Notes under the pieces: model-generated
Database searches by the model: none
Told to the model about the DNA's origin: nothing
Seen by the model: only the letters and a program-made list of their open reading frames with translations
Shown here: in pieces, positions 2,274 to 57,847 of the stretch
Numbering within the stretch: position 1 is the stretch's first letter
How the letters are laid out: every line of letters begins with the position of its first letter
NCBI GenBank assembly: GCA_002811645.1
Contig: PDIP01000006.1
Location: 1-64,000, forward strand
Direction: 5' to 3'
DNA: 64,000 nucleotides
Source: Corallochytrium limacisporum Hawaii
Lineage: Eukaryota; Protista; Pluriformea
Program-made: the position numbers and the translations under genes

Positions 2274-3590
2274 CTATTTTGACGGATCCCGTCCCTGGTA
2301 ATGGCGTAGCATATGCCCAGTTCGACCTAGGGATCGGCCACGAGCATTTGCGGTGTTTTGGATCCTACGTTGCTTGATCATTTGCTCATGTAAATTCCAA
2401 CGGCGCACGACCTCATGTGGATCCATATTTTGCTCGGCTTCTCGAATCTTGGATGCCAGTCGAGAGCGCTCTGATTGGTGCTCGTGTGTCTGCAAAACAT
2501 CCAGTTCAAAAGCCATAAAGTCATAGTAGTAGTGGAACGCAGACACAGGAATTTCATCCACTTCAGCACTAAAGTGTTCATACAAGGCTGTTCGGCATGC
2601 CTCCAACTCAGCTCCACGCACGGAAGTATGCGCACCTTTCGCAAGCTCTCGATCTCCAGACCATACCGATACCACATACACTGGGTAACGAGAATGGCGT
2701 CCACTCTCCTTCTCAATCACAGAGTGAGGTGGAACCAAACCCAACTCATCGCACAGTAGCCTGAGGGTTGCCATCGCATCGGCATATTTTGCCGTACTGA
2801 AGAGTGCCTCGCGATCGTTCAGTTCTTCAAAGTAGGTAGAGACCATGAAGTCATGGAGAAGCCTTGAACTTGGATCAGCAAGATTTAGAGCACCGACAAC
2901 GGCGACCATTGCTTTCTGACACTCAGCCTCGTAAGCAAGTCGACCCGCCGCATCATCTGGATTCGCAGCACCCAACAAGTGTTGCACAATTGGGGTCAAA
3001 CCTACCTTCTGCGACAACTTGTACTGCATTGGCGGTGAATTCAAGTAAATCACCAGTTCTTGCATCATTGGAGCCGGCAAGAAGGGATATCTGAAGAAGA
3101 TGTGGTGCGCAAGTGAATGCTCCAGAGCAGCCTGTCCGAGGACATTCAGACGCCCTGCCTGGGAGGTCAGAGAGTTGGTTGGATGGTACTGCCCACGACC
3201 CTGCCTTGGAACACGCGCTGCTAATGCATCATAGAGCATTACAGTCGCCTTAACTTCCGCTGCGATATCTCCATCCATTGCGACGGCATCCAGAGCACCT
3301 TCCTTGAGTGACTCTGGTAGGGGCAACCCCAATTTATTGGCAAGCGCAAAAAAATGAGCATGGAATTCATCCTTCCTATGCATTTTAAGCCGCCAGTAGT
3401 GTGGGATTGTACCCTGGTGATTGTATTTCAGGGTTGTACCACCCAATTCCTCCGTGGCAGCCTGCTTGTCGCTATCTGTTTTTATGTCCCTGCGAACGCA
3501 TGATACAGCAATGGAGCGCGTTTGGGCAATCGTACCCCTCGCTATCAGTATGCCATGGCCACGGCGACCGTGGCTGATCACCCGAAACAT
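2274..3590 (-). CDS. MRPL44: Mitochondrial ribosomal protein mL44 (RNase III-like domain + dsRBD)
   Basis: Arg-rich N-terminal presequence; degenerate RNase III region (RLNVLGQAAL...RYPFLP); dsRBD ESGRHSRYPVYVVSVWSG...GAELEA. First ATG at 3590. Confidence 0.75.
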   Translation of the reverse strand: MFRVISHGRRGHGILIARGTIAQTRSIAVSCVRRDIKTDSDKQAATEELGGTTLKYNHQGTIPHYWRLKMHRKDEFHAHFFALANKLGLPLPESLKEGALDAVAMDGDIAAEVKATVMLYDALAARVPRQGRGQYHPTNSLTSQAGRLNVLGQAALEHSLAHHIFFRYPFLPAPMMQELVIYLNSPPMQYKLSQKVGLTPIVQHLLGAANPDDAAGRLAYEAECQKAMVAVVGALNLADPSSRLLHDFMVSTYFEELNDREALFSTAKYADAMATLRLLCDELGLVPPHSVIEKESGRHSRYPVYVVSVWSGDRELAKGAHTSVRGAELEACRTALYEHFSAEVDEIPVSAFHYYYDFMAFELDVLQTHEHQSERSRLASKIREAEQNMDPHEVVRRWNLHEQMIKQRRIQNTANARGRSLGRTGHMLRHYQGRDPSK

Positions 3591-4570
3591 CACTGGTACT
3601 CCAACGTCTAATACAGAGCACGCTATCTCTCTTCAAGTCCCAGTTGTGCACATTATTGTGCGCAGTCCCTTGGATGTATTGGCCGATCTTGGTGTATGAA
3701 CTTTATGCACTGCTTTCAGGAATGTAAGTATGTTTAAGTACCGGGCTCGTAGGTCCAATAGAGCAGGTATACCCCAAATTAGTCTTAGTGGCTCTAAGAT
3801 GCTGACGAGACCACATAGTACTCGTTAACCCTTTGGACCAGCTGGCAATTCAGATCGGTCGTTCCGGAGGACACGCACGCCCCCCGGGCTCCCCGTGCAT
3901 GACCTCCGAATTGTGGCCCCTCGAGGCTTGGAAATGATCCCCTCCCCAGGCACCCATGTGACTCAGTTAACGCAGCGAATCGACACACTGGCACAGTGCC
4001 CCTCCTCCTGGCTCCGCAGCCAAAGCATTTCTTTTATTTAGGTCGTGTGCTTTTAGTGCGGAAACCCCACTTCCTTTGCCAATAATTTCCTCTGAGCTTC
4101 TTACCTGTTCCTTCGTTGCAGTATGGACTGGGATTATTTTTTTAATATGGGAAAGTATTTTTTAAATAGCTATCGCGGGTGTTTATTGATTTGTCGGGAT
4201 CCTCGACGACAAAACTAGAAAAAAAATAGCGTTTGCTCGAGCTGCGACATCTAACAACGGCTTTTGGGTGAAAAAAACTCAGATGTTTCCAAAACTCTTT
4301 TGATTAGTGTGGGTTTGCAGTCCTGACGGGCGGGGGCGGGTGCGCGCTGCTCGGCTTCGTGGGAATGGAGGTAGGATATGCATCGTGCGCAGCTTTTGCT
4401 TTGATTTTTATCTATTCAATCATAATCTGTTCAGTTGCGTAGGGATGAGTACCGATACGTGGTATTTCAGAAATGTAGAATACCCACTACTTGGATGCTT
4501 GAATGGTCTGAAATAGAGGATGATCCGCTTTCGCCGTTCGGACTGTTGATATCAAGCGGAGCTCGAAGAT

Positions 4571-38600: not shown

Positions 38601-39462
38601 TTGCATAGTGATATTCGCATACAGCAGACGCTTATCCGGACATGTTTTTTTCAAATGCTACATAGAGAATTAAAGAACGTAGGCAAGTTCAACATGGACT
38701 TTCCAAACTGTACATGCAAACACAATCTCTTCTCCCCTTCCGCCCCCCATTTTGCAGCAAAGACACACTCTCTCCATTTGACTCCCAGCCACTTCACCGC
38801 TGCGGGAATCGTGGGCGAAAAAGAAATTTTACAGCTTCGACGTGATGGCAGTGGTACGGCCCAGACTTCAGCGACATCAGATGCGTCTCACGTCATTCAA
38901 GTAGAGTCATGTCTACGGCTGTGTTCCACCAGCCCTTGCGAGATGCGGTGGTTTCGACCGACAACGTCGCCCACTCTTGCATGGTGCGCTTGGACTGATG
39001 GCCAGATTGTGGCATCCACTTAGGGGTTCAATACACCGGTTTCGGAGCTCCAGAAAGTATTGGACGGGTTCAGACATCCTACAGTACTCAGAGAAACGGG
39101 ATTGACATTTTCTAACCCTGACTACAAAGTAATTCGCGCAGATGCTAGAAGGGACCCACGGGGCCTAATTGCCGCGCGACGCAACGGCACATGATTGTGG
39201 CGCTCTCTACGACGTCACAATGTATCCCAGCGTCGCTGCTGGGTCTGTCGAAGTATTGGGTAAGTAGATTAAAGCTTATGTACATGAAGTGATCCTAGTG
39301 GGCATGTCATGGTGTGACAAAGGTGGCTAACCTTTACGTGGTGATTCAGTTTTCCTCTTTCCCTCTGCAGCCGAACACTTGAGGCGTAAAGGCCTTTGAA
39401 AGAATACGTTGATGATGAACCTCTTACGCATACACTTTACAGCACAGTTTATGTCCTTTCAG

Positions 39463-39840
39463 TTATGTCTTAAAAATGCCAGCATGCGCAGCAAATTTGG
39501 TGATCTGGGAACCTTCTCGGGGGTGGTGCAAGCGAGAGTCCCTCGGCAGCACTGGGGCAATCAAGGGGTTTGAGTGCCAGCCGTATTCGTGTGCCGTTGT
39601 TGCCGGATCGTCGTACTTCTCCACCGGAGGGGCCACCATTCGCTTTAGTGTCTCGTAGAATCCTGGATCCTCGACATCGTGGGCGGCCATTGAGTCTTGG
39701 GGCTTGGGTGGCAGGTAGTGAAGAGACTTGGGGGTTGGTTTGTAGGCGGTGAAAGGCCGGAAAAAGGCGTCTTCTTTCTCAATCGTTTCCCTCAGGATCC
39801 TCTCCTTCTTGACCTGATCAAGACCCTCCTCATTGGTCAT
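39463..39840 (-). CDS. CFAP144/FAM183-like cilia- and flagella-associated protein
   Basis: ILRETIEKE...PVEKYDDPATTAHEYGW...DSRLHHPREGSQITKF matches the FAM183 pattern; ATG at 39840. Confidence 0.7.
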   Translation of the reverse strand: MTNEEGLDQVKKERILRETIEKEDAFFRPFTAYKPTPKSLHYLPPKPQDSMAAHDVEDPGFYETLKRMVAPPVEKYDDPATTAHEYGWHSNPLIAPVLPRDSRLHHPREGSQITKFAAHAGIFKT

Positions 39841-40387
39841 GGCTATGCTTTGGATGATTTGTTCAAACTCCACGGTTTGCTGGGATCCAAGGTGCGGAAT
39901 CGAATGGCTCAATGATGGCATACGTACTCCAAAGTACCACCACCCGTCCCCACCCTCCTTGTTTCCAATCAAACCCGCCCGCCGAGAAGAGAGATTTTTT
40001 GGGTGCCTATAGCGCGAGTGTCGCCTGGCGGGACACGGGTTTACGTTGGTCACCGTCAAATCTTGCCAACCTTTCCCCCAATTCTTCCCTGCCCCCTTTC
40101 TTTGTCTCCTTTTTCCCCATGCCGTTGGGACAAACGTTTGCTACCCCCCTTGTGTGCACAGTCAAACGCGGACACGGGGAACCAACCTGCCTTGGCAACT
40201 TTGTGCGAAAAAGCCAGCTGGTTCAATGGGACCTTCCAGGAGCTTGCAGCACTAGCATAATCTTCCCACAACCATCCCAACCCCGCAACAGTTTTTACGT
40301 TGACAAGACCCCCCCCCTTCACTCGGGGAGAAAAAAAAAAGCCTCCCCCATTAGGGGCCTGCCTGTAGTGAAAATACCGAATTTGAG

Positions 40388-40582
40388 AAATCTGGGGGTC
40401 TCACTATGGACGGTCACAGATCAGAATCCTGTCAACCGATTTCGAAGATTCGAAAACATGGAACATGACAAGATATGATAATTTACACTTGTGTATGTTT
40501 AATTATCATGTTTATGATGCATGTCCAAAAAAATTGCAAAAAAAAAAGAAGCTTGGAAATTCCGAGCAGGGTGATTCGAACA
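40388..40582 (-). repeat. Direct repeat, left copy (195 bp): 22 nt of tRNA-Tyr 3' end (40561-40582) plus ~170 bp of downstream flank; att-like junction
   Basis: Matches 46880-47073 except for 3 substitutions, one ~20-bp diverged patch and A10 vs A8. Confidence 0.95.
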
Positions 40583-40789
40583 TTCTATACTGTGGCGTTG
40601 CTGGTGGTCTCTAAGTGCAATTTGAGGCACTGTTTGGTGGTAGTTCCTGCCTGTGACGTATATCGGGGCGGGTCTCTCGTTTCTTCCTGTTCTGTGAGTC
40701 CCTCTCCACTCCGACGGGGACTGCGTTGAAAAGGAAGAAAAAAAAGAAGAGTGGTTACGATACGGTGGATTGAGACTCTTCAAGGTCAT

Positions 40790-43700
40790 CTACTGTTTCT
40801 TAGGTTTTACGGTATGCCAATGCGTAGAGTGGACTTTCGTGGCCCTACACCCCCTTCTCACCCCCCTCCCCGGGGCCCCTATTGGTAGTCTTTGCCCAAC
40901 GCGCCGGCCGCTTAGCCTCTTGCGTTGGGCGCCTCGTGTGGCTGCACCTTCAGCGGGTTGTGAGCATTGCATCGGTGCGGGGGGAAGGGCGAGCTGGTGA
41001 GATCCCGTGTACGGACCGAGAGGTTTGGCCATTGTTGGCGCCTGGGCCCGGCCCATCTTATGCCTCGCTATTCCCATGAGGTTCGTCCACTTGTCATCCA
41101 CATCACTGTCCACAATTTGAGGACAGCGAAGTTTGCCACGTAGATGGGTATAGCACTCGGCGAAGCACGCTTCCATTACAAAGTTGGCCAGGTGGGATTG
41201 CCTGCGCGGATCCTGCAAGAGGTATCGGTCCAGCATGACAGCTACAGTATGACCCATACACTGTGCCAATTGCTCCAAATAGGCCCTCTTGTTGCCACTT
41301 CCCGTGGTGTCGATGAGTCCGACCGCATAGGTCACGGCTAGGTGCCGCACCTTATGGCTGGTCATCTTACATTCACCACCAGAGAGCTCCTCCACGCAGT
41401 GCTGGAACGCAATGGCAACCGATTGATTGCATACCCGACAGTGCTCACGGGACTTGACTGGATCAGCGCGGGCAGGGCAACGTGAGCACTGCAAAGGAAA
41501 GAGGGGCAATTTGAGCCTGAGCCTGTCGTTCCGCGCCAAAAAGAAACACCGTTCCCTTATGCGCCTCTGCAGCTCGGGCACAGACCGCAAAGATCCCTGC
41601 GTGGACTTCGGGTTCGGGCCGTGGAGGGCCAACGCCTCAGGAAAGACCGAATCCGGAGCGGCCACCGGCAACACAATGCGAATGTACCAAGCAACTATTT
41701 TGGCCAGTTCCTTGTAGAGCCATGTGCGATCAATGTACTTGCGTTTGAAACAGCTTGTCTTGATCCTGGCGGGCCAATAGATATGACCACCTATCAAAGG
41801 ACGCATCGCTTGCTCCGCTGCTGTGGCTCGCTCAAAGGATCCGACTAGGGCGGCACGCAGGATGCTCTGCCGCGGGAACCCCGTCCCCATGACCTGAGTA
41901 AGGACATGTTCTTGGATCCTGCGGCTGAGACTGATGAGCTGCTGCACAGGCGATGGTGGTGGCACATACTGTACATTCTCGTCACGCACACAATTGGCAT
42001 CGCTACCAAAAGACAGAAGGTGATGCAGGAGCGTGCGGTTATCGTCATCGAGCAAGCGACCCATGCCATCAGGGTGATTGTTGATGCTCTTAAAGAAGGG
42101 CATGAGGAAATGGTGAAGTGACTTGTTTAAGTACTCATCGAGCCCTTTGAATCCGTCCCTGGGGATCTTGCCGGTCGCAAGGGCGCGCTCATGAGAAGAG
42201 CAGTACGTGTCTACCAACTTCCTCTGATTGTCCAGATTTCTGAGGGCAAGCTGCAAATCGCTGATACTTTTGTTCCACTGGGCCTGGATACCAGACGCCT
42301 TCATTATTTGTGCAACTGCAGCGTGGCGGTTTAGTGCGGTGCTGCCATGGTGGCTTCCACTGCTGCGACCATGGTTAGCAGGTGCTTTCATGAGGCGCAC
42401 AATGTCTCTCAGTGCCTTGCTGACGTTGAGAACACTGCGCACACTGCCTGCCAAAGTACGCGGCATCTTGTAGAGCTTGCGGAGGAAGGAGTCACCCTGG
42501 GCGTAAGAGACAACAATGCGGCGATAGTATCGGCGAAATTGAATGTGTTTATCCTTGTGCGCTTGCTTGAACGTATCAAATGCCCGCGACAGCGACTGCT
42601 TCAATTTCAATTCAATCCACTGGGTAACCATACCATTATCGTAGAATGGCCGCAATAGCTGCCTTGGGTCACGCAAGAGTGTATCAGTCATCGACGGTAT
42701 GTAATCATGGACCCGGTGACAGTAGAGGAGATAGCCACGCACATCTGCAAGATGCGCTGAGGTCGTCTTACGGGGTTCGCTACAGGCAAATGCCAGCAGT
42801 ACCTGTCGAGGTTGGGATGCCTTCTCGGTGTCTCGCTTTTGCTTGCGCTGCCACCACTCATGCCAGCCATTGCGTCGCAGAGCCACGGTGACAATGGTAC
42901 CGATTCCATGCCATAGTGTCTCCACCCACTGTTGGAGCCAGGCAACGTGACCTCCCTGGGCCGTTGTGGTGCCGTCGATTAGCGACTCTGGTTCTACAAT
43001 CATGTCAAAGTCTGTGTTTGGCAGTCTGAAGACCAGCGAAATCGGAACTAAGACACGCGCCACAGCCGAGATACCGTCCACTAATGTCTTGTCCATGTCT
43101 TCATCTTTGTCCGTTCTGTTGTTTTCTTCAGATGCGTCTTCTCCATCGGCGAGTACGGATTCGTCGCCATAGTCAGCGTCCAAGATCTCCTCTTGCTCTT
43201 GTGCCTCATCCTTAGCCTCGGGCTGCGGGTGGTACGCCATCAGCTCAGAATGTAAGTCAATCGAGGGTAACGGACACCGTCCGGTAGAGGTTCCCTTGGG
43301 AAGCATGCAAGCATCAACCTGCTCCTGGTGCTCGATCTCAAGCAGTGCTTGGTCTAAGCGTTCCACATCTTGTTCAAACCCTGGGTCGCTTCGCAGACTC
43401 TTGATGCGCCCGCGGCGATTAATCTCGCCGACGGCGGCGCCAACGTCCACTGCCGGTGTCTTTTCGTAGGATAAGTCAGCAGTGCGATCGTTCATTTGAA
43501 TGGAATGGTAGTAAGCCCGGTGCAGCTCGTAGTTGTGCTGAAGCAGGCCAGACTGTTTGACACTACGAGACTGGAGCTTGCGAGCACACTTGGAGCCCAT
43601 GTGAATTGGTAGCATTTGTCCATCTCGCACGGGCGGCGCCACGTCCCGAGATGCCCAATATTGGTGCCATGCTGCCCAATTGACCACCCGAAAGAGACCA

Positions 43701-46393
43701 TCCAAGTCCTTGGTGGTCATTGGTTGCCCTTCTTCGGTCAGGAACAAGTTCTCAGCTCCTTTGAACCCCTTGTCCTGTCCCAATAGGGCCGGATGTACAT
43801 ATTTGCAGTAGACACGAAGCACACGCGACACAACTGGAGGAATGGGAATCTCGGTGGCATGTCCGGCCAAACAGTTCTTGTGCTCAAGGGGCATGTCCAC
43901 AAAGCTGACCATTTCGCGATCCAACGTTGAGTCCCCGGAGTGCACCAGGTGACTCAGATATCCGTACACCATCTTGGTGCAGTCACCATCAGTCCCGGCG
44001 GGAACAGCAGCCAACCTGAACGCGGCTTCCTGTTCGTAGCCGCAGCCAAACTCACCACTGGCCCTTGTGAGACCACACAGCACGGAGGGGCGCTGGTTGG
44101 GTACTAAATAGTTTAGAAGCATGACGAGAAGCATTACCATCTGTACGCGCACAATACCGTTCTCCCTAACGTATCTACAAATATGAGACTGTCGGTTCGT
44201 TCCGTCGTTAGCGCTGACCAGATCAAGGAAGTCCCGAACAGCTGGCTCGATGAGGTCAGTGAGTCCTGTCATCATGGCGAGGACGTCAGTCTGCCGCGGC
44301 ACACGACCCTTCTCCTCATCGTGCCGGCTGGTGCGTGCAGTGTTCTCGACCTCAATATTTGGATACAGATCATTCTCTTTGGTGAGGTTCTTCAGGAGAT
44401 CCAGGACTCTTTGCGACCCTTCCAGGACGTGCTGGCATCGGGCTGCAGTGGGCATGAGTTCATGAATGTTGGCCGCGCGCAGCGCCTCCACCAATTTTCT
44501 CATTCTTGTAATTTTGTTCCTCCTAGCCCCAGCACATACCGTCCAGTGCCACTTGCGTGTTTCACGGTCATCATCAAAGTCGTCAGTGCCGTCATCGGCA
44601 TTGTCCGCGGATGCCCCCCTCTTCTGAACCACAACTCGGCGGAAATACTCCGCATGCCATTCCGGCTCTGCCATAATGATCTCAAACAGAAAGGTCCAGT
44701 CGCTGTTGAGGTCCTCTATCCTACAAACCAGATGAGCAGGAGGTACAGAGTCCTGCTCGAGTAGTGAGTCCACCTCTGGATCATCAACGGGCCGGGTGGC
44801 AAGATCCAGGAAGAAGGTCCAAAATTGCCGGCCCATGCCCAGGATGGCTTCAAAGAAGGAGCTCCGGCGCGTTCCATCGTTGGCGGGTATCCACTTGGAC
44901 AACATGGAGGATACGAGAGTAGTACCATCAAAGTTCTTGTTTAACCAGGCCTCCATGCGTTGTAGGTCCCCTGGTCGTTCACAAATGTGGTACAAGAAGG
45001 CGTGTAATTCGGTCTTGGTCGGAGTGCATCTTTGCTTGCCACCAACTCGCTCCTGGTTATGTACACACTTCATGGTTTTGGTCTGCGAGTCATTGAAATG
45101 TTTGATCACGCTCACAGCCACCACCCCATGGAGTAGAAGCTCCACAGTGAAATTGGAAGATCGCCCAGGTTCCAACCGATCATTTCCAATTTGATTGCGA
45201 GCAGTAGCCCTTTGCTCTGCCCGACATGAGAAATACAGAGAGTACCAAATTTGTGGATCTGGAAGCATCGCTACACTTGCCTGTAGGAATGCTTTTCGCA
45301 CCCCCAACACTCGAAGTGCATCAGGGGGGAGTTCCACTGCAGGCCCTTTGTGGTTGGGATTGTAGTTTATCTTGTGGGGGCCACTGTTCTCTTTGCAATC
45401 CTGTTTCTTTCTCCCGGCTCCTGGCTGTTGCCGACGCCATTTGCTTCGACATTGAACATCGCCCGTCCTACCATGGTAGGTTGGAAATGGCAGCTCATAC
45501 AAACCATTGCCAAAGGATCGATTCGAGCCCACATTTGCAGTCTCAACTGCCATCTTCTTTATTGTACGCACCATCGGATCACAGACCGGCAGGAGGATGG
45601 AGTCGGGCTGTCGATCCCGGTCTCCGTCCAGTGGCAATAGACTCCCGCCGTAGTGTTTCTCCTCATGTGTCATCAAGATATTGGAAGAAGCAAACGTATC
45701 CGCAGTTTGATCACCCAGGAAGTCTAGCCATCCAGGGTGGTGTTCGGCCTCGGTACCATCGATTCCGCTGTACCACCCGTCAAAAGATAGAATGCTGGCA
45801 ACCACGGAACGTTCGAGGATCAGACGTAATTGTCCCGCTGTCATCGGGACCGGCATCGTCATGATGATACGAATTGTAATCAGTTGTGCTGTCGTGGAGG
45901 GGGATCGAACGTGCCACTGATAGGCATACTCTGCATCGCTTGCATCAAGTATTGCTTGCAGAAGGCTTGCAAACTCGGCGCGGTCGCCAGAAGGTTTAAT
46001 GTTTGGGACAAACTCAGTGGTCCAAAACTGGGTACGCAGGGACGACAAACATTGCCGTGGTCCTGGTTGGTGCAGAAAATTGTGGTCAGACATGCCATTC
46101 TCATCATCACAACCATGCAAGGTGATAAATGCTTTTGGCCCTACCGGGACATGGCGGTTGGTTCGGACTTCGGTCGGACAGTAGTGTCTGATGCGCTCGC
46201 TGGTAGTTGCAAAGCCATTGGCTCCGCACCATATGCAACTCCTTGTTCCAGTGAACCACACTGGTTGGAAATTGTCGTCAATCGGGACCAATTTTTTGGG
46301 GGATCTACTCCTGATCTTGCGGGGCTTCTTCGGTACCTGTTCATCGCCAGTGAATCCGAAAGTGCACACGGCTTGTTCACTGGCATTGCTCAT
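40790..46393 (-). CDS. ~1867-aa protein with two tyrosine-recombinase-like domains and Zn-binding motifs
   Basis: C-terminal domain: FPRQSIL (R), IKT (K), SHKVRH (HxxR), MGHT (H), DRY (Y). Central domain: NQRPSVL, HKN, LFLTEEG, SKCARK, QMN, LSY. First ATG at 46393 (the track start 46441 is GTG). Confidence 0.85.
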   Translation of the reverse strand: MSNASEQAVCTFGFTGDEQVPKKPRKIRSRSPKKLVPIDDNFQPVWFTGTRSCIWCGANGFATTSERIRHYCPTEVRTNRHVPVGPKAFITLHGCDDENGMSDHNFLHQPGPRQCLSSLRTQFWTTEFVPNIKPSGDRAEFASLLQAILDASDAEYAYQWHVRSPSTTAQLITIRIIMTMPVPMTAGQLRLILERSVVASILSFDGWYSGIDGTEAEHHPGWLDFLGDQTADTFASSNILMTHEEKHYGGSLLPLDGDRDRQPDSILLPVCDPMVRTIKKMAVETANVGSNRSFGNGLYELPFPTYHGRTGDVQCRSKWRRQQPGAGRKKQDCKENSGPHKINYNPNHKGPAVELPPDALRVLGVRKAFLQASVAMLPDPQIWYSLYFSCRAEQRATARNQIGNDRLEPGRSSNFTVELLLHGVVAVSVIKHFNDSQTKTMKCVHNQERVGGKQRCTPTKTELHAFLYHICERPGDLQRMEAWLNKNFDGTTLVSSMLSKWIPANDGTRRSSFFEAILGMGRQFWTFFLDLATRPVDDPEVDSLLEQDSVPPAHLVCRIEDLNSDWTFLFEIIMAEPEWHAEYFRRVVVQKRGASADNADDGTDDFDDDRETRKWHWTVCAGARRNKITRMRKLVEALRAANIHELMPTAARCQHVLEGSQRVLDLLKNLTKENDLYPNIEVENTARTSRHDEEKGRVPRQTDVLAMMTGLTDLIEPAVRDFLDLVSANDGTNRQSHICRYVRENGIVRVQMVMLLVMLLNYLVPNQRPSVLCGLTRASGEFGCGYEQEAAFRLAAVPAGTDGDCTKMVYGYLSHLVHSGDSTLDREMVSFVDMPLEHKNCLAGHATEIPIPPVVSRVLRVYCKYVHPALLGQDKGFKGAENLFLTEEGQPMTTKDLDGLFRVVNWAAWHQYWASRDVAPPVRDGQMLPIHMGSKCARKLQSRSVKQSGLLQHNYELHRAYYHSIQMNDRTADLSYEKTPAVDVGAAVGEINRRGRIKSLRSDPGFEQDVERLDQALLEIEHQEQVDACMLPKGTSTGRCPLPSIDLHSELMAYHPQPEAKDEAQEQEEILDADYGDESVLADGEDASEENNRTDKDEDMDKTLVDGISAVARVLVPISLVFRLPNTDFDMIVEPESLIDGTTTAQGGHVAWLQQWVETLWHGIGTIVTVALRRNGWHEWWQRKQKRDTEKASQPRQVLLAFACSEPRKTTSAHLADVRGYLLYCHRVHDYIPSMTDTLLRDPRQLLRPFYDNGMVTQWIELKLKQSLSRAFDTFKQAHKDKHIQFRRYYRRIVVSYAQGDSFLRKLYKMPRTLAGSVRSVLNVSKALRDIVRLMKAPANHGRSSGSHHGSTALNRHAAVAQIMKASGIQAQWNKSISDLQLALRNLDNQRKLVDTYCSSHERALATGKIPRDGFKGLDEYLNKSLHHFLMPFFKSINNHPDGMGRLLDDDNRTLLHHLLSFGSDANCVRDENVQYVPPPSPVQQLISLSRRIQEHVLTQVMGTGFPRQSILRAALVGSFERATAAEQAMRPLIGGHIYWPARIKTSCFKRKYIDRTWLYKELAKIVAWYIRIVLPVAAPDSVFPEALALHGPNPKSTQGSLRSVPELQRRIRERCFFLARNDRLRLKLPLFPLQCSRCPARADPVKSREHCRVCNQSVAIAFQHCVEELSGGECKMTSHKVRHLAVTYAVGLIDTTGSGNKRAYLEQLAQCMGHTVAVMLDRYLLQDPRRQSHLANFVMEACFAECYTHLRGKLRCPQIVDSDVDDKWTNLMGIARHKMGRAQAPTMAKPLGPYTGSHQLALPPAPMQCSQPAEGAATRGAQRKRLSGRRVGQRLPIGAPGRGVRRGCRATKVHSTHWHTVKPKKQ

Positions 46394-46879
46394 GTTTACA
46401 TGTGTTACTTTTCTATAACGCGCAAAAATGGAGATAGCCACGAACTACAGTATGCGACACACTATCGAACCTGATGTAGGTTGCAGTGCCCCAGGCATAT
46501 GGTCTTCGCGCGGTGAGATCAGGTGAAAGACTTGATGGCATCTGTGAGACCCACCCACCCTCAAACCACCCTGCCCTTGGGGTAATTTGAAACTTTCCCG
46601 GCACGGCTACGGCCAATTCCAGGTGAATTTTTCCTCCAATCCATAGGGGCGATCTTGTGTACTGAAGAGTCTCATAGAAAATCGCAATGGGAAATATATA
46701 CGGGGAAGCACTGGATCACGATTCACTATTAGACACTGAAAAGGCCTGGCGCGGCTTAAGGTGTACATATAAATGAGACTCCCGTCATCACCGGGGGCTG
46801 GCGGAAAAAAAAGAGAGAGTCTCCCTTATGCACTCCCCTCTCGCTCCTTCAGCTGATAGTAAAAGTACTACAAAACAGT

Positions 46880-47073
46880 AAATCTGGGGGTCTCACTATG
46901 GACGGTCACAGATCAGTATCCTGTGAACCGATTTCGAAGATTCGAAAACATGGAACATGGCAAGAACTTATTTTATACACCTGTGTTATGTTTAATTATC
47001 ATGTTTATGATGCATGTCCAAAAAAATTGCAAAAAAAAGAAGCTTGGAAATTCCGAGCAGGGTGATTCGAACA
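46880..47073 (-). repeat. Direct repeat, right copy (194 bp), supplying the 3' end and terminator of the intact tRNA-Tyr
   Basis: Near-identical to 40388-40582. Confidence 0.95.
47020..47038 (-). terminator. RNA polymerase III terminator (T8 then T7 tracts) downstream of tRNA-Tyr
   Basis: + strand aaaaaaattgcaaaaaaaa gives oligo-T on the tRNA strand ~13 nt after the discriminator; also present in the left repeat. Confidence 0.85.
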
Positions 47074-47170
47074 CCCGACCTAGAGATCACTATTCGGTAT
47101 GTTTAGTACCGGATTTCAGATGAATTTGCGCATCTACAGTCTCCCGCTCTACCAACTGAGCTATGCTCGG
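47052..47170 (-). tRNA. tRNA-Tyr(GUA) with a 46-nt canonical-position intron (47088-47133)
   Basis: Reverse complement folds as CCGAGCA/TGCTCGG acceptor, GCTC/GAGC D arm, GGAGA-CT-GTA-G^A-TCTCT anticodon arm and GGGTG-TTCGAAT-CACCC T arm; 73 nt after splicing; no encoded CCA. Confidence 0.97.
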
Positions 47171-47861
47171 TGAGTGCTTCTGATGGGCGAGGGTGGAAAA
47201 AAAGTATATAAACTACTGAGCAATGCACGTGTTTGAGTTAGGTTTTCAGTGAAAGTCTGGTGGCGGTGGGGTGATGGATGTGGGCAATTCGGTGGACGGG
47301 AAATGTCTACGTTTGAAGGGGGGCGGCAGGGGGGAGACTCCTCCATCGAGGAGCGAGGCGTGCTCGGTTGATATAACCCCACACACCACAAAAAGAGGAA
47401 AGTTTCTTCTTCCTTCCTTTTCTCTTGTTTCCTTTTCTTTCTTTCGTTTCTTTCCTTTGTCGTCCAGCTGGCGGCGCCTCTCGTCCCTCGAGAACCATGG
47501 CTCGGCCCTCCTGTTCTTCTATTTCCTCGAATACGCCAAGAGTGTGTACACACCCATGGAGGCATTGTTAGCATTTCCTTTTTTTTTTTTTTAACTGTTC
47601 TTCCCTCTCCCGATTCTTATTGTTGGCTCCGGCGGGGCTATTGCCAATACGAAAAAGGGACAGGGCCCGAGGGGAGGAGGAGGAGGGGGGCTTGCCGTGT
47701 TTTCCAGCCGTGGACTGTTTGTGTCCCGTAACGGGCAGGTAGTTGAGGGAAAAATTAGAAGGTTATGATATTGAAATTGAAATGCCCAAAGACCATGCAA
47801 CGACAGACACATACCCAAGAAAGAAAAAGAGAGCAACAAAGCCAATCTTAAACTCAAGAGG

Positions 47862-48719
47862 ATGTCGTCAAATCCACCACCTGGCTATGGCCAGCCGCCG
47901 CAGGGGTACGGACAGCCACCGCAGGGATATGGCCAGCCACCACAGGGATACGGACAGCCACCGCAGGGGCACGGACAGCCGCCGCAGGGGTACGGACAAC
48001 CACCGCAGGGGTACGGACAACCACCGCAGGGATATGGACAGCCGCCCCAGGGATATGGACAGCCGCCCCAGGGATATGGCCAGCCGCCGGCGCCGGGCCA
48101 AGACTACGGATCCATGCTTCCTTCAGAGTATAGAAACAATGGTCAGGGCGCGGAGCAGAGGCCCAGTGCGGGCACCGTTCCAGACAACTACGCACAAACG
48201 GCCCAGGCAGCATATGGTGGTCAACAGCCGCCATCAGAGCCGCTGCCATCGTCTCAGCAAGAACCACCTTCCTCAAAGAAGCAGCAAATGATGAACGAGC
48301 AACAACAAAACTATGCTCCGCCGCCCATGCCGCCACCGGGACAGGCACCGGGAGCGTATCCGTACCCACCAGCGGCCAACCCTGTTCCGGAAGGAACGGA
48401 TTTCAATGCCCGCGAAGTAAAAGACTTCCCCAACGAGTTCGACGACGAGTCCAAGGGCAAGGGTGCCTTCAAGAATTTCATTGGCCTAAACACTGCGCGT
48501 TGCGCAGTGTGCCAGCAAAAGAATCGAGTGCGCGATGGCCAGGCGCGAATCTACAGCTGCGGTCGCTGCGGGGAACTGTCCCTGGCGGAAGGGGTCAAGG
48601 GGCCCAAAGATCCAACCAAAAAATTTTTCCGCTGTGGCTGCAATGCACTGCTCATCATGGACAAAAACTCCATGATTTTCATGTGTCCACGTGAACGTGC
48701 AATTCGTGGCTGTGGCTAA
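47862..48719 (+). CDS. Pro/Gln/Gly/Tyr-repeat protein with TMEM55 (PIP4P)-like Cys-rich Zn domain
   Basis: About ten PPQGYGQ repeats; C-terminal CAVC...CGRC...[13 protein letters not shown]...CPR resembles the TMEM55 KKYVRCPCNCLLIC...CPR region. Confidence 0.7.
47876..48089 (+). repeat. Coding 21-bp tandem repeat (PPQGYGQ)
   Basis: About ten units of ccRccNcagggRtaYggMcaR, mostly with synonymous variation. Confidence 0.9.
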
Positions 48720-55783: not shown

Positions 55784-57847
55784 ATGGTTGCGGAAGAAGC
55801 CTCTAAACCGAAATATCTACCGCGGCATTTGCCGGATGACTTGGTCGATGGAGATCGGGTGTGCTTCGTCTCCGTGGGTCCGCTGCCACCTAACTCTGCG
55901 TGCAGTCTCCTGAAGGAGCGACAGATCATTGATCAACTGAAAAGTAAACTATTGGCAGAGTCTGCATCCTTCCACGGGACGCCACAGGACATTAACTTTG
56001 AGGTATTTGACAATTGCGGGAAGGGATACCTGGCACTGGACCACGACCGGGAGGAAGAAGCTTGGGAGGCCATAGACGAATTTGATCCGACAGGCCTGAT
56101 TGTCCTTAAGCGGGACGGATCAACAAAGCTATCTGTACGAAATGACCTGCCTCGCATAGATATAAACTTGCAAGTGTTCAACATGAAAAGACCTGCCGTC
56201 AAAAAGTTCCATCTGGAGAGAAAGGCGTGGTACAAAGATTGCAACAAAGAGTTTGTTCACGTTCAAGTCACCGACACAACCACAAAGAAGTCGCCGAATC
56301 ATAGTGTCTACGTTTTAAGGGTTGATGATGGATGGGAGAAGACCCATCCATACTTGGCAAAAGCGCAGTTTGTTATTAAGGACATGCGATCTGCCACGGA
56401 TGACGAGTTTACGGCAATGATGGTGTCTCGATCGCGTGAAATAGTCTGGGGCACTGGTTTTGAAACCTCGGAGAGTGACGTCCTCGAAGATGCCATGGCC
56501 AGCAAGAAGACAGACGCAGCAATTTTTACCATGGTTGAGGAAGGAAGTCACGCGACCATAGTAATTGCGGCAAGGCGTTCCAGGAGCGGGAACACAAAGT
56601 CCTTTATCATCCAAACGAAGCGGATTGCGAGGATGGACGAGTCATTCCCTAAGGTTGAGACTGCTGGGCGCACGGACAACTTCACGTACAATTGGAGATA
56701 CTTCATCGATATGACTTTCGCGGATTCATGGATGCGTGGAGTAGAGGTGGTAAATGGCATTGTCACCGACCTAGATAACCCTGCGAAGAACACTGACTTG
56801 GATGGGCTCCCAAAGATCACTGACAGTGATCCTCACTCTGAAGTTGATATCCTACGGGCATTGACTTGCTTTTGTGACGAGCCAACGGACGAGTACCTCA
56901 CAGTGGTCACAGCCACACTGGAAAGCTACTTGGCGAACCACCAGATTCCAATGGAACACATCGTCGAGGATCTCGTAGCCCGCTCGATCTTCCCGAAACC
57001 GGGACAGAGAAAGCAACCCACCGAAAAGGAACTGGTCATGCTTTTCACTGTCATGGTCTTGTTTGCTCACCGAGGCCTTCACGGCGAATCATCCGTCCAA
57101 AATTTGCTCAATAAGCATATGCAGCGCATCCAATTGTTCCTATCGGGAAGTGATGGGCCTCTGCATCGAGCTGAGGACAGTTTGCGCAAATCATTCCTTG
57201 CGGATGCCGTAGACACCATTGCGGAACACGGTAAGTGGCAAGACAGTCCCGAATCAGACTTTGAAGGTGCGATTGACAAGCTTGTCTCCAACCCAGTGCA
57301 GAGCCGGAAACGGCGGGCCAGTGGCTCAATGGACAAGGATGGACAGAAAGTCACGAAACCGTCATCCAAGAGAGGCACAGGCCGCGGAGCAAAACTTAAA
57401 AGAAAGGCTTCTGTGAGGACGCAAGGAGGCATGCGGACGAGCAAGACCATCCACGTGCCACAGATGTCATCAATCGGGCCCACAGGCACTAAAGCCAAGA
57501 AGAGTTCTGCTGGTATGAGGAGCGAGAATCCCGGGTCCAAACGTGCGCGGGCATCCTCCCCGGATGGACGGGGAGGTACCATCAAGACACCATCGCGAAA
57601 AATACCATCGAAATCGTTTAGTGTGCAAGAGACGCCACTGCAACTACACACAGCTAACACAGCCCTGGATATTCCGGTGGCGCCCGGTATGATTGCAGCT
57701 TCGCCAATCCAGGCCTTTGGGGCCCCCGAAGTCTCGGAAGGGTTAACTGGCCAAACCCTGTCGCGACGGAGGAGTGCTCGCTCATCGCGGGACGCTAGTC
57801 TCAACACTAGCGACCCGGACTTCAAACGATCGCTGCAGTTCAGCTGA
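55784..57847 (+). CDS. Hypothetical 687-aa protein, candidate Sld3/Treslin-like replication factor
   Basis: Long clean ORF. Helical middle region, basic disordered tail, paired CDK-type sites VQETP (T617) and IAASP (S640). The ORF is solid; the family call is tentative. Confidence 0.45.
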   Translation: MVAEEASKPKYLPRHLPDDLVDGDRVCFVSVGPLPPNSACSLLKERQIIDQLKSKLLAESASFHGTPQDINFEVFDNCGKGYLALDHDREEEAWEAIDEFDPTGLIVLKRDGSTKLSVRNDLPRIDINLQVFNMKRPAVKKFHLERKAWYKDCNKEFVHVQVTDTTTKKSPNHSVYVLRVDDGWEKTHPYLAKAQFVIKDMRSATDDEFTAMMVSRSREIVWGTGFETSESDVLEDAMASKKTDAAIFTMVEEGSHATIVIAARRSRSGNTKSFIIQTKRIARMDESFPKVETAGRTDNFTYNWRYFIDMTFADSWMRGVEVVNGIVTDLDNPAKNTDLDGLPKITDSDPHSEVDILRALTCFCDEPTDEYLTVVTATLESYLANHQIPMEHIVEDLVARSIFPKPGQRKQPTEKELVMLFTVMVLFAHRGLHGESSVQNLLNKHMQRIQLFLSGSDGPLHRAEDSLRKSFLADAVDTIAEHGKWQDSPESDFEGAIDKLVSNPVQSRKRRASGSMDKDGQKVTKPSSKRGTGRGAKLKRKASVRTQGGMRTSKTIHVPQMSSIGPTGTKAKKSSAGMRSENPGSKRARASSPDGRGGTIKTPSRKIPSKSFSVQETPLQLHTANTALDIPVAPGMIAASPIQAFGAPEVSEGLTGQTLSRRRSARSSRDASLNTSDPDFKRSLQFS

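Follow-up and report, generated by a model that had tools for sequence, protein, structure and literature searches.

A putative integrative element of Corallochytrium limacisporum that may cross over at the T-loop of a tRNA-Tyr gene

The window analysed here is a stretch of 64,000 nucleotides from contig PDIP01000006.1 of Corallochytrium limacisporum Hawaii, an opisthokont and single-celled relative of animals. An interval of ~6.5 kb with one gene has an intact tRNA-Tyr gene on one side and, on the other, a duplicate of the tail of this tRNA gene in the same orientation (both on the minus strand). The position of the repeat boundary, the repeat itself, the open reading frame (ORF) and a motif repeated at both non-coding ends can be read directly from the DNA. 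The surrounding genes are eukaryotic and poor in introns (a GIT-type ArfGAP, an ankyrin kinase, FAM183 and a MUN-domain protein). Elsewhere in the window, the ORF at 47862-48719 contains ~ten 21-nt tandem copies (47832-48125) and after them a weak zinc-ribbon match; the copies look like a common coding repeat of low complexity. A weak intein-splicing match (E 0.018, below the cut-off) was obtained for a 687-aa ORF (55784-57847) with no other assignment, and a protein with RNase III and dsRNA-binding domains is encoded at 2274-3593, every match being below the curated cut-offs. Repeats and transposons are reported to be largely missing from the genome of this species (PMC5560861).

The target gene, tRNA-Tyr(GUA), is intact and occupies 47052..47170 on the minus strand, where it scores 56.9 bits (E 2e-10) against Rfam RF00005, whose gathering score is 29; it is the sole Rfam match within the window. 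The mature length is 73 nt, the anticodon is GTA, and a 46-nt intron follows position 37 (~47133-47088, limits read from the sequence by canonical position). ARAGORN detected no tRNA at 47052-47170, so that this intron-bearing gene was seen by Rfam alone, and tRNA-targeted elements in such genomes may be overlooked for this reason. The T-loop, TTCGAAT (47065..47071, minus strand), is the predicted 7-bp overlap at the left junction.

The gene's tail is part of a long direct repeat composed of 22 nt of tRNA and 172 nt downstream. The tRNA-side copy (46880..47073, minus strand, 194 bp) comprises tRNA positions 52-73, a T-tract terminator and a 172-nt AT-rich palindromic trailer with one GAGACYC motif; the far copy (40388..40582, minus strand, 195 bp) includes a 65-nt quasi-palindrome and has its GAGACYC at 40396, close to its end. 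There are 13 differences in 196 columns (93% identity); none occurs in the first 35 nt, and 9 are clustered within 28 nt. The repeat is sharp at both ends. Similarity before it is at shuffle level (165 and 406 of 1,000 shuffles reach it), and homology extending beyond it was rejected as borderline against both shuffles (14, 46 and 396 of 1,000 for 120, 200 and 400 nt) and real controls (62/1,130).

A reading of the sequence alone had placed the repeat boundary at the T-loop, and its two junctions are letter-exact on the minus strand: AGGTCGGG joined to TGTTCGAATCACCC on the tRNA side, and GTATAGAA joined to TGTTCGAATCACCC at the element end. Identity starts 2 nt before the loop as that reading claimed, at TG (47073/40582), which is tRNA position 52. 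At 40561..40590 (minus strand) the element end is joined to the 22-nt tRNA 3′ fragment, with the T-loop copy at 40580-40574, and the 14-mer at the junction has exactly 2 matches in the 64 kb with up to 2 mismatches allowed. A start of identity in the 5′ T-stem, at or before the loop, is expected of tRNA islands of the T-loop subsite and agrees with the start at position 52 here. A boundary in the 5′ T-stem is mildly non-random, corresponding to ~6 of 119 gene positions in one case picked post hoc. The first 11 identical bases, TGTTCGAATCA (47073-47063), are the span of the B-box, which we take to be tRNA positions 52-62, and the boundary is the first B-box base; this coincidence with the start of a Pol III promoter element provides a second possible cause for the boundary position. 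Downstream, the identity of the repeat extends past the tRNA end, to 187 bp beyond the T-loop. The repeat therefore sets only the left limit of the crossover and leaves the right edge of the core undefined.

The proposal that the T-arm provides an inverted pair of recombinase-binding arms, GGGTG/CACCC, around a 7-bp core fares differently on the two sides. On the tRNA side the arms are present, forced by the T-stem as in any tRNA; on the element side only the TG/CA pair remains. The element-side arms are AGAATG and AGGGTG, and past the TG 4 of 11 positions match, a level reached by 31% of random element 11-mers: the element-side dyad is no better than chance. Around the loop the arms match at 8 of 13 positions on the tRNA side, 5 of them stem-forced, and at 6 of 13 on the element side. 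A pair of partner sites that both carry inverted core-binding arms of ~11-13 bp was not found, and a scan of 6-8-nt cores ranks the T-loop top on the tRNA side and outside the top six on the element side. Part of the integrase reading is supported, namely the layout of T-arm islands and two recombinase-like domains in the ORF; the 7-bp core is a prediction.

Where exactly strands would be exchanged can be read in more than one way. A start 2 nt before the loop fits an exchange spanning the loop that leaves a conserved TG/CA beside the cuts, and the 7-nt loop fits the 6-8-bp spacer of tyrosine recombination (PMC3212892); both points argue against an exchange further 3′, at the T-stem/acceptor junction or elsewhere in the 22-nt fragment. 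Under that alternative, which we consider unlikely, the element would still use a tyrosine recombinase, and the start at position 52 would reflect a B-box kept whole, for example for TFIIIC tethering, or an asymmetric binding site. In its favour are the match between the B-box span and the 11 bases from the boundary, the chance-level dyad on the element side, the merging of T-loop and junction sites in Islander as hard to distinguish (PMC4383910), and two archaeal integrases whose functional site was not delimited by the block of identity between attL and attR (PMC8371274). Within tRNA genes, the reported integration sites of prokaryotic islands are the anticodon loop, the T-loop and the T/acceptor junction (PMC4383910, PMC8371274); as the host is eukaryotic, this bacterial T-loop precedent serves as an analogy. 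A crossover at the T-loop by the element's own recombinase is, on the basis of one insertion, the likeliest mechanism, and we hold it with modest confidence.

The boundary had also been regarded as the strongest link between the ORF and the repeats. That place belongs to GAGACYC, a motif confined within the element to its ends, which has measured support and is a stronger link between the ORF and the ends than the T-loop boundary. The left non-coding end (46442..46879) contains four copies (46546, 46667, 46775 and 46817) in addition to the one in the adjoining repeat, and the right non-coding end (40583..40789) contains two (40670 and 40772). Over the 817 nt of the non-coding ends there are 7 copies, 5 on the left and 2 on the right, where 0.14 are expected; the ORF has 0 and the remaining 57 kb of the window 10. 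Each repeat copy holds one (46888 and 40396). Because the motif was found by looking, its count of 7 was compared with the highest count for any 7-mer with a single degenerate position: none of 300 shuffles exceeded 6, and none of 21 host gene flank pairs exceeded 5. Two of the copies, one at each end, lie in a perfect 12-bp inverted repeat (40771-40782 with 46663-46674). The attP site of phage lambda has arm-type binding sites, and by likeness to it the GAGACYC copies may be sites of the same type. A second word, TCACAG/CTGTGA, occurs five times in the element ends (46906-46926, 46542, 40651 and 40692) and forms a 6-bp dyad, spaced by 9 nt, within the repeat; it is possibly part of the same binding motif.

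The trailer is unusual in several respects. With a GC content of 0.35 and 0.34 in the two copies, it is more AT-rich than all 662 non-coding 165-nt windows, a control set that holds no other tRNA trailer. A second TTCGAATC lies inside the repeat (46927-46954 and 40435-40462; 32 of 5,000 shuffles), within the palindrome TTTCGAA-TC-TTCGAAA, and matches the tRNA tail at 14 of 22 positions; an older junction, now decayed, that flanks a small hairpin cassette may be its origin. The quasi-palindrome of the far copy (65 nt, within 40440-40530) has a z of -3.5, compared with -0.4 in the tRNA-side copy, and overlaps the clustered differences. These nine differences could represent one template-switch event, so that 93% identity may overstate the age of the repeat. 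Taken together, the AT-richness, the motif copy, the second TTCGAATC and the quasi-palindrome lead us to favour a trailer that would be an arm of the element, and a far copy that would stem from an earlier or tandem insertion since lost by deletion. In prokaryotes, 125 of 3,919 islands are found in tandem arrays at a single tRNA (PMC4383910). No second tRNA 3′ fragment was found downstream (best other match 14/22), and the remnant model consequently needs an unseen deletion. Alternatively, the trailer may be host flank captured by one imprecise excision. Under either the arm or the captured-flank model, the join of the element's right end to position 52 is of attP type, and the left limit given above stands.

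Contigs from four sequencing runs were compared with positions 39000-47500; two of the runs, X1 and X2, may be the source of the window and are thus not independent of it. In both, the repeat is a single contig of 194 nt that connects at either end with contigs of the element and of the flanks; the element is covered to the same depth as the flanks, and the joints listed at the repeat include no skip or back-joint. From each of the four sides the contigs reach 30 nt into the repeat before they end, which places both junctions in the reads. They carry only the tRNA-side version of the repeat, at a depth of 1.4 and 1.8 times the flanks (X1 and X2), where 1.28 is expected if diverged copies were collapsed and 2.0 if the copies were identical. 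With the tRNA-side version alone and an intermediate depth, the differences of the far copy are without confirmation from the reads. Two short pieces of the ORF in run X3, whose RNA nature is a guess, were rejected as evidence of expression, and absent coverage in X5 was rejected as evidence of an empty site.

The length of the repeat and its depth in the reads bear on a further explanation, in which homologous recombination or unequal crossover across the 194-bp repeat made the present insertion, as in a cycle based on long terminal direct repeats with solo repeats and multimers. The T-stem boundary would then be a relic of an old capture, and the recombinase dispensable for the last step. 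At 194 bp and 93% identity the repeat greatly exceeds those of Cryptons and Starships (4-16 bp) and is of sufficient length for an exchange driven by homology, and its depth lies between the two expectations. Solo and multimer forms arise from long direct repeats in the eukaryotic KolobokP (PMC9587614), and IntpTN3 recombines identical 104-bp segments (PMC8371274). The homology route leaves unexplained why the repeat starts in the T-stem, why an intact recombinase-like ORF of 1,883 codons has been retained and why motifs resembling binding sites are present, and the equal depth of element and flanks gives no sign of multimers; we regard it as quite unlikely. A reading of the repeats as LTRs with a primer-binding site was rejected because the tRNA piece is sense-oriented at the start of both and no reverse transcriptase was found.

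The interval between the repeats is filled by a single orphan ORF (40790..46441, minus strand) of 1,883 codons from GTG, from which residues are numbered; the first ATG is at 46393. Domain 1 (43457..44134, minus strand) resembles a tyrosine recombinase, with R784, K855, K951-x-x-R954 and Y992, and M983 at the His/Trp position. Its candidate catalytic residues, assigned by eye, follow in the order R, K, R, Y; the Lys and Met at the usual His positions are atypical. In domain 2 (41207..41884, minus strand), H1696-x-x-R1699, H1731 and Y1740 align with a recombinase profile built from 25 bacterial recombinases, the first Arg is uncertain (R1538?) and a CxxC...CxxC insertion is present. In the ESM Atlas, the domains score 0.94 and 0.95 to phage-integrase clusters with PF00589 on 36% and 29% of members, respectively, and the top matches of both are unnamed viral or eukaryotic clusters. 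Against the same profile, hhalign ranks them first (probability 31%) and second (3%) of 149 targets, and hmmsearch ranks them first and third of 469, with non-significant E-values (0.7 and 1.6) and a shuffled decoy between them. Domain 2 further has a PHROG integrase match (E 0.08). The two domains are not detectably similar to each other. Cysteine pairs at the N-terminus (46226-46237) and inserted in domain 2 (41429-41488) suggest zinc-binding modules.

Conventional searches returned little. No Pfam or NCBIfam family, PF00589 included, matches the ORF, and its first 700 residues likewise lack a family match; no reverse transcriptase, DDE or RNase H family was found in it or in the 5 opposite-strand frames. 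There is no homologue among 1.84 billion representatives, a collection in which a paralogue more than 50% identical would hide in its cluster. Word-index protein searches gave only the self-match eukprot:Clim_evm15s221 (in one search the best 8,000 candidates were scored), PDB sequences gave no match below E 0.7, and viral contigs no relative. A metagenome contig locus was rejected as a relative, the match being low-complexity coiled coil. With tblastn, phages and plasmids yielded none for domain 1 and only 1 and 3 weak matches for domain 2, the best of which spans small hypothetical genes and was dropped. Single-sequence structure models have low confidence (pLDDT 37 and 38), and a fold search with that of domain 2 found no match. 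The EukProt model at 39463-46393 (P0002) fuses the ORF with the downstream FAM183 gene across the far repeat into a false protein of 1,918 aa with FAM183 as its sole Pfam label, so the element is probably hidden by this annotation. The two recombinase-like domains are weakly supported; in our judgement, the ORF product is very probably a tyrosine recombinase.

The lack of any family match or homologue and the low-confidence models would also suit an orphan or domesticated host gene that happens to lie beside the tRNA, the repeat having come from a local duplication or an assembly artefact. Such a non-mobile origin would agree as well with the host-like codon usage of the ORF (r 0.64, against 0.30-0.73 for 13 host genes) and with the absence of the far-copy variant from the X1 and X2 contigs. 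It is very unlikely in our judgement: both junctions are present in the reads of these runs (with the reservation that these may be the window's source and not independent), and the enrichment of the motif at both ends, the 12-bp inverted repeat between them and a paralogue fit a mobile element.

The evidence for this paralogue comes from a separate 3,300-nt contig in X1 and X2 at single-copy depth, which matches domain 1 at window positions 43663-43887 over 40 of 49 nt plus a 21-nt piece. The loose end of this contig is in frame and by hand translation identical to domain 1 at 6 of 9 residues; no matching protein for it was found in the databases searched. It appears to represent a second, diverged copy of the recombinase region at another place in the genome. 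Its first base corresponds to 46924, at a distance of 15 nt from the repeat break in the element's contig, a hint that this relative may have a similar end, though chance may also account for it.

On balance, we lean towards interpreting the 6.5-kb interval as a mobile element of an integrative, prophage-like kind in a eukaryote, which would recombine at the T-loop and leave the tRNA restored. Its ORF product would be a tyrosine recombinase with two catalytic-type domains, which is predicted to insert a circular form of the element by a crossover at the 7-bp T-loop, strand exchange spanning TTCGAAT and the tRNA thereby being rebuilt. The attachment site of the element would carry tRNA positions 52-73 and the terminator, so that the host gene would retain its B-box and acceptor stem, and the ORF protein would bind the GAGACYC copies as arm-type sites. 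If the 172-nt trailer belongs to the element as its left arm and an earlier or tandem insertion left the far copy behind, then 40561-40590 is more like an attP junction than a displaced host end. More tentatively, and with considerable doubt, the element could stand for a eukaryotic prophage-like family that integrates at the tRNA T-loop/B-box and rebuilds the gene, its single-chain two-domain recombinase being a fused heterodimer and its GAGACYC copies forming lambda-like arm sites at both ends. In a fused heterodimer with one domain per half-site a symmetrical dyad would be unnecessary.

The interest lies in the element more than in the 7-bp prediction. Gene-restoring tRNA integration by tyrosine recombinases is a bacterial and archaeal hallmark; in the eukaryotic recombinase elements compared here the repeats are short and the targets are microsatellites, telomeres or rDNA, and eukaryotic DNA elements that target tRNA genes use DDE enzymes. 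If the interpretation is true, it would extend the bacterial and archaeal strategy to a Pol III gene with an internal promoter, and offer a compact one-protein integrase for a conserved and harmless nuclear site as well as the first example of a two-domain tyrosine recombinase to test. With defined ends and candidate binding sites, the element is directly testable.

Several known systems share parts of this organization. In tRNA islands a whole tRNA lies at one end, a 3′ fragment in the same orientation at the other and a recombinase-like gene between them, the gene is restored and sizes are within 2-200 kb, all as in the element, and 3,760 of 3,919 tDNA islands displace the 3′ fragment (PMC4383910). 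The element differs from them in its eukaryotic host, its intron-bearing Pol III target, its lack of a PF00589 match and of cargo, its 1,883-aa two-domain protein and an identity that continues 172 nt past the tRNA. Cryptons are likewise eukaryotic, with one ORF, a tyrosine recombinase as the only recognisable enzyme and a presumed circular intermediate (PMC3212892). A tyrosine recombinase as sole enzyme, with neither reverse transcriptase nor DDE, fits the definition of Cryptons on condition that the recombinase call is right. In contrast to the 194-bp repeat of the element, Cryptons have 4-6-bp terminal repeats and no long direct repeats, and the word tRNA is absent from the main text of the paper that describes them (PMC3212892); the Crypton families GCR1_C and DUF3504 have no match in the element, and the target-specific CryptonV known use microsatellites, whereas the element lies at a tRNA gene. 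For Crypton-like elements, the mechanism is described as lacking an experimental demonstration so far (PMC13565253).

Starships are eukaryotic tyrosine-recombinase elements at a multicopy RNA gene, 5S rDNA, but have 6-16-bp repeats, a 5S gene expected to be disrupted, large cargo and a DUF3435 captain (PMC11162782), none of which is seen in the element, a single gene with no Pfam family on its ORF. Nimavirus recombinases are eukaryotic tyrosine recombinases that target 28S rDNA or telomere repeats, with 11-bp repeats and viral genes that the element lacks (PMC10871703). Eukaryotic DNA elements in tRNA genes are represented by Dada, including Dada-tY in tRNA-Tyr(GTA), which differs by its DDE transposase and 6-7-bp target duplications (PMC8869645); in the element there is no DDE match and the tRNA is intact. 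KolobokP shares the long flanking direct repeats, of 450 or 660 bp, but has a DDE transposase and a His-Me nuclease, and its abstract describes no tRNA targeting (PMC9587614). A DIRS/Ngaro retrotransposon was rejected for want of a reverse transcriptase or RNase H, and a Polinton-like virus or virophage (capsid, packaging ATPase, 14-40 kb) because the element measures 6.5 kb and has one long ORF with no relative in viral contigs; cryptophyte polinton-like viruses are reported to lack a tRNA gene within 1 kb of their sites (PMC12220804). In the literature covered, outside which lie most subscription journals and Repbase Reports, no eukaryotic tyrosine-recombinase element is described in a tRNA gene, and no paper there contains the phrase 'two tyrosine recombinase domains'. 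In its predicted working the element is like a T-arm tRNA island, yet on the tested features it stands outside both that group and the Cryptons.
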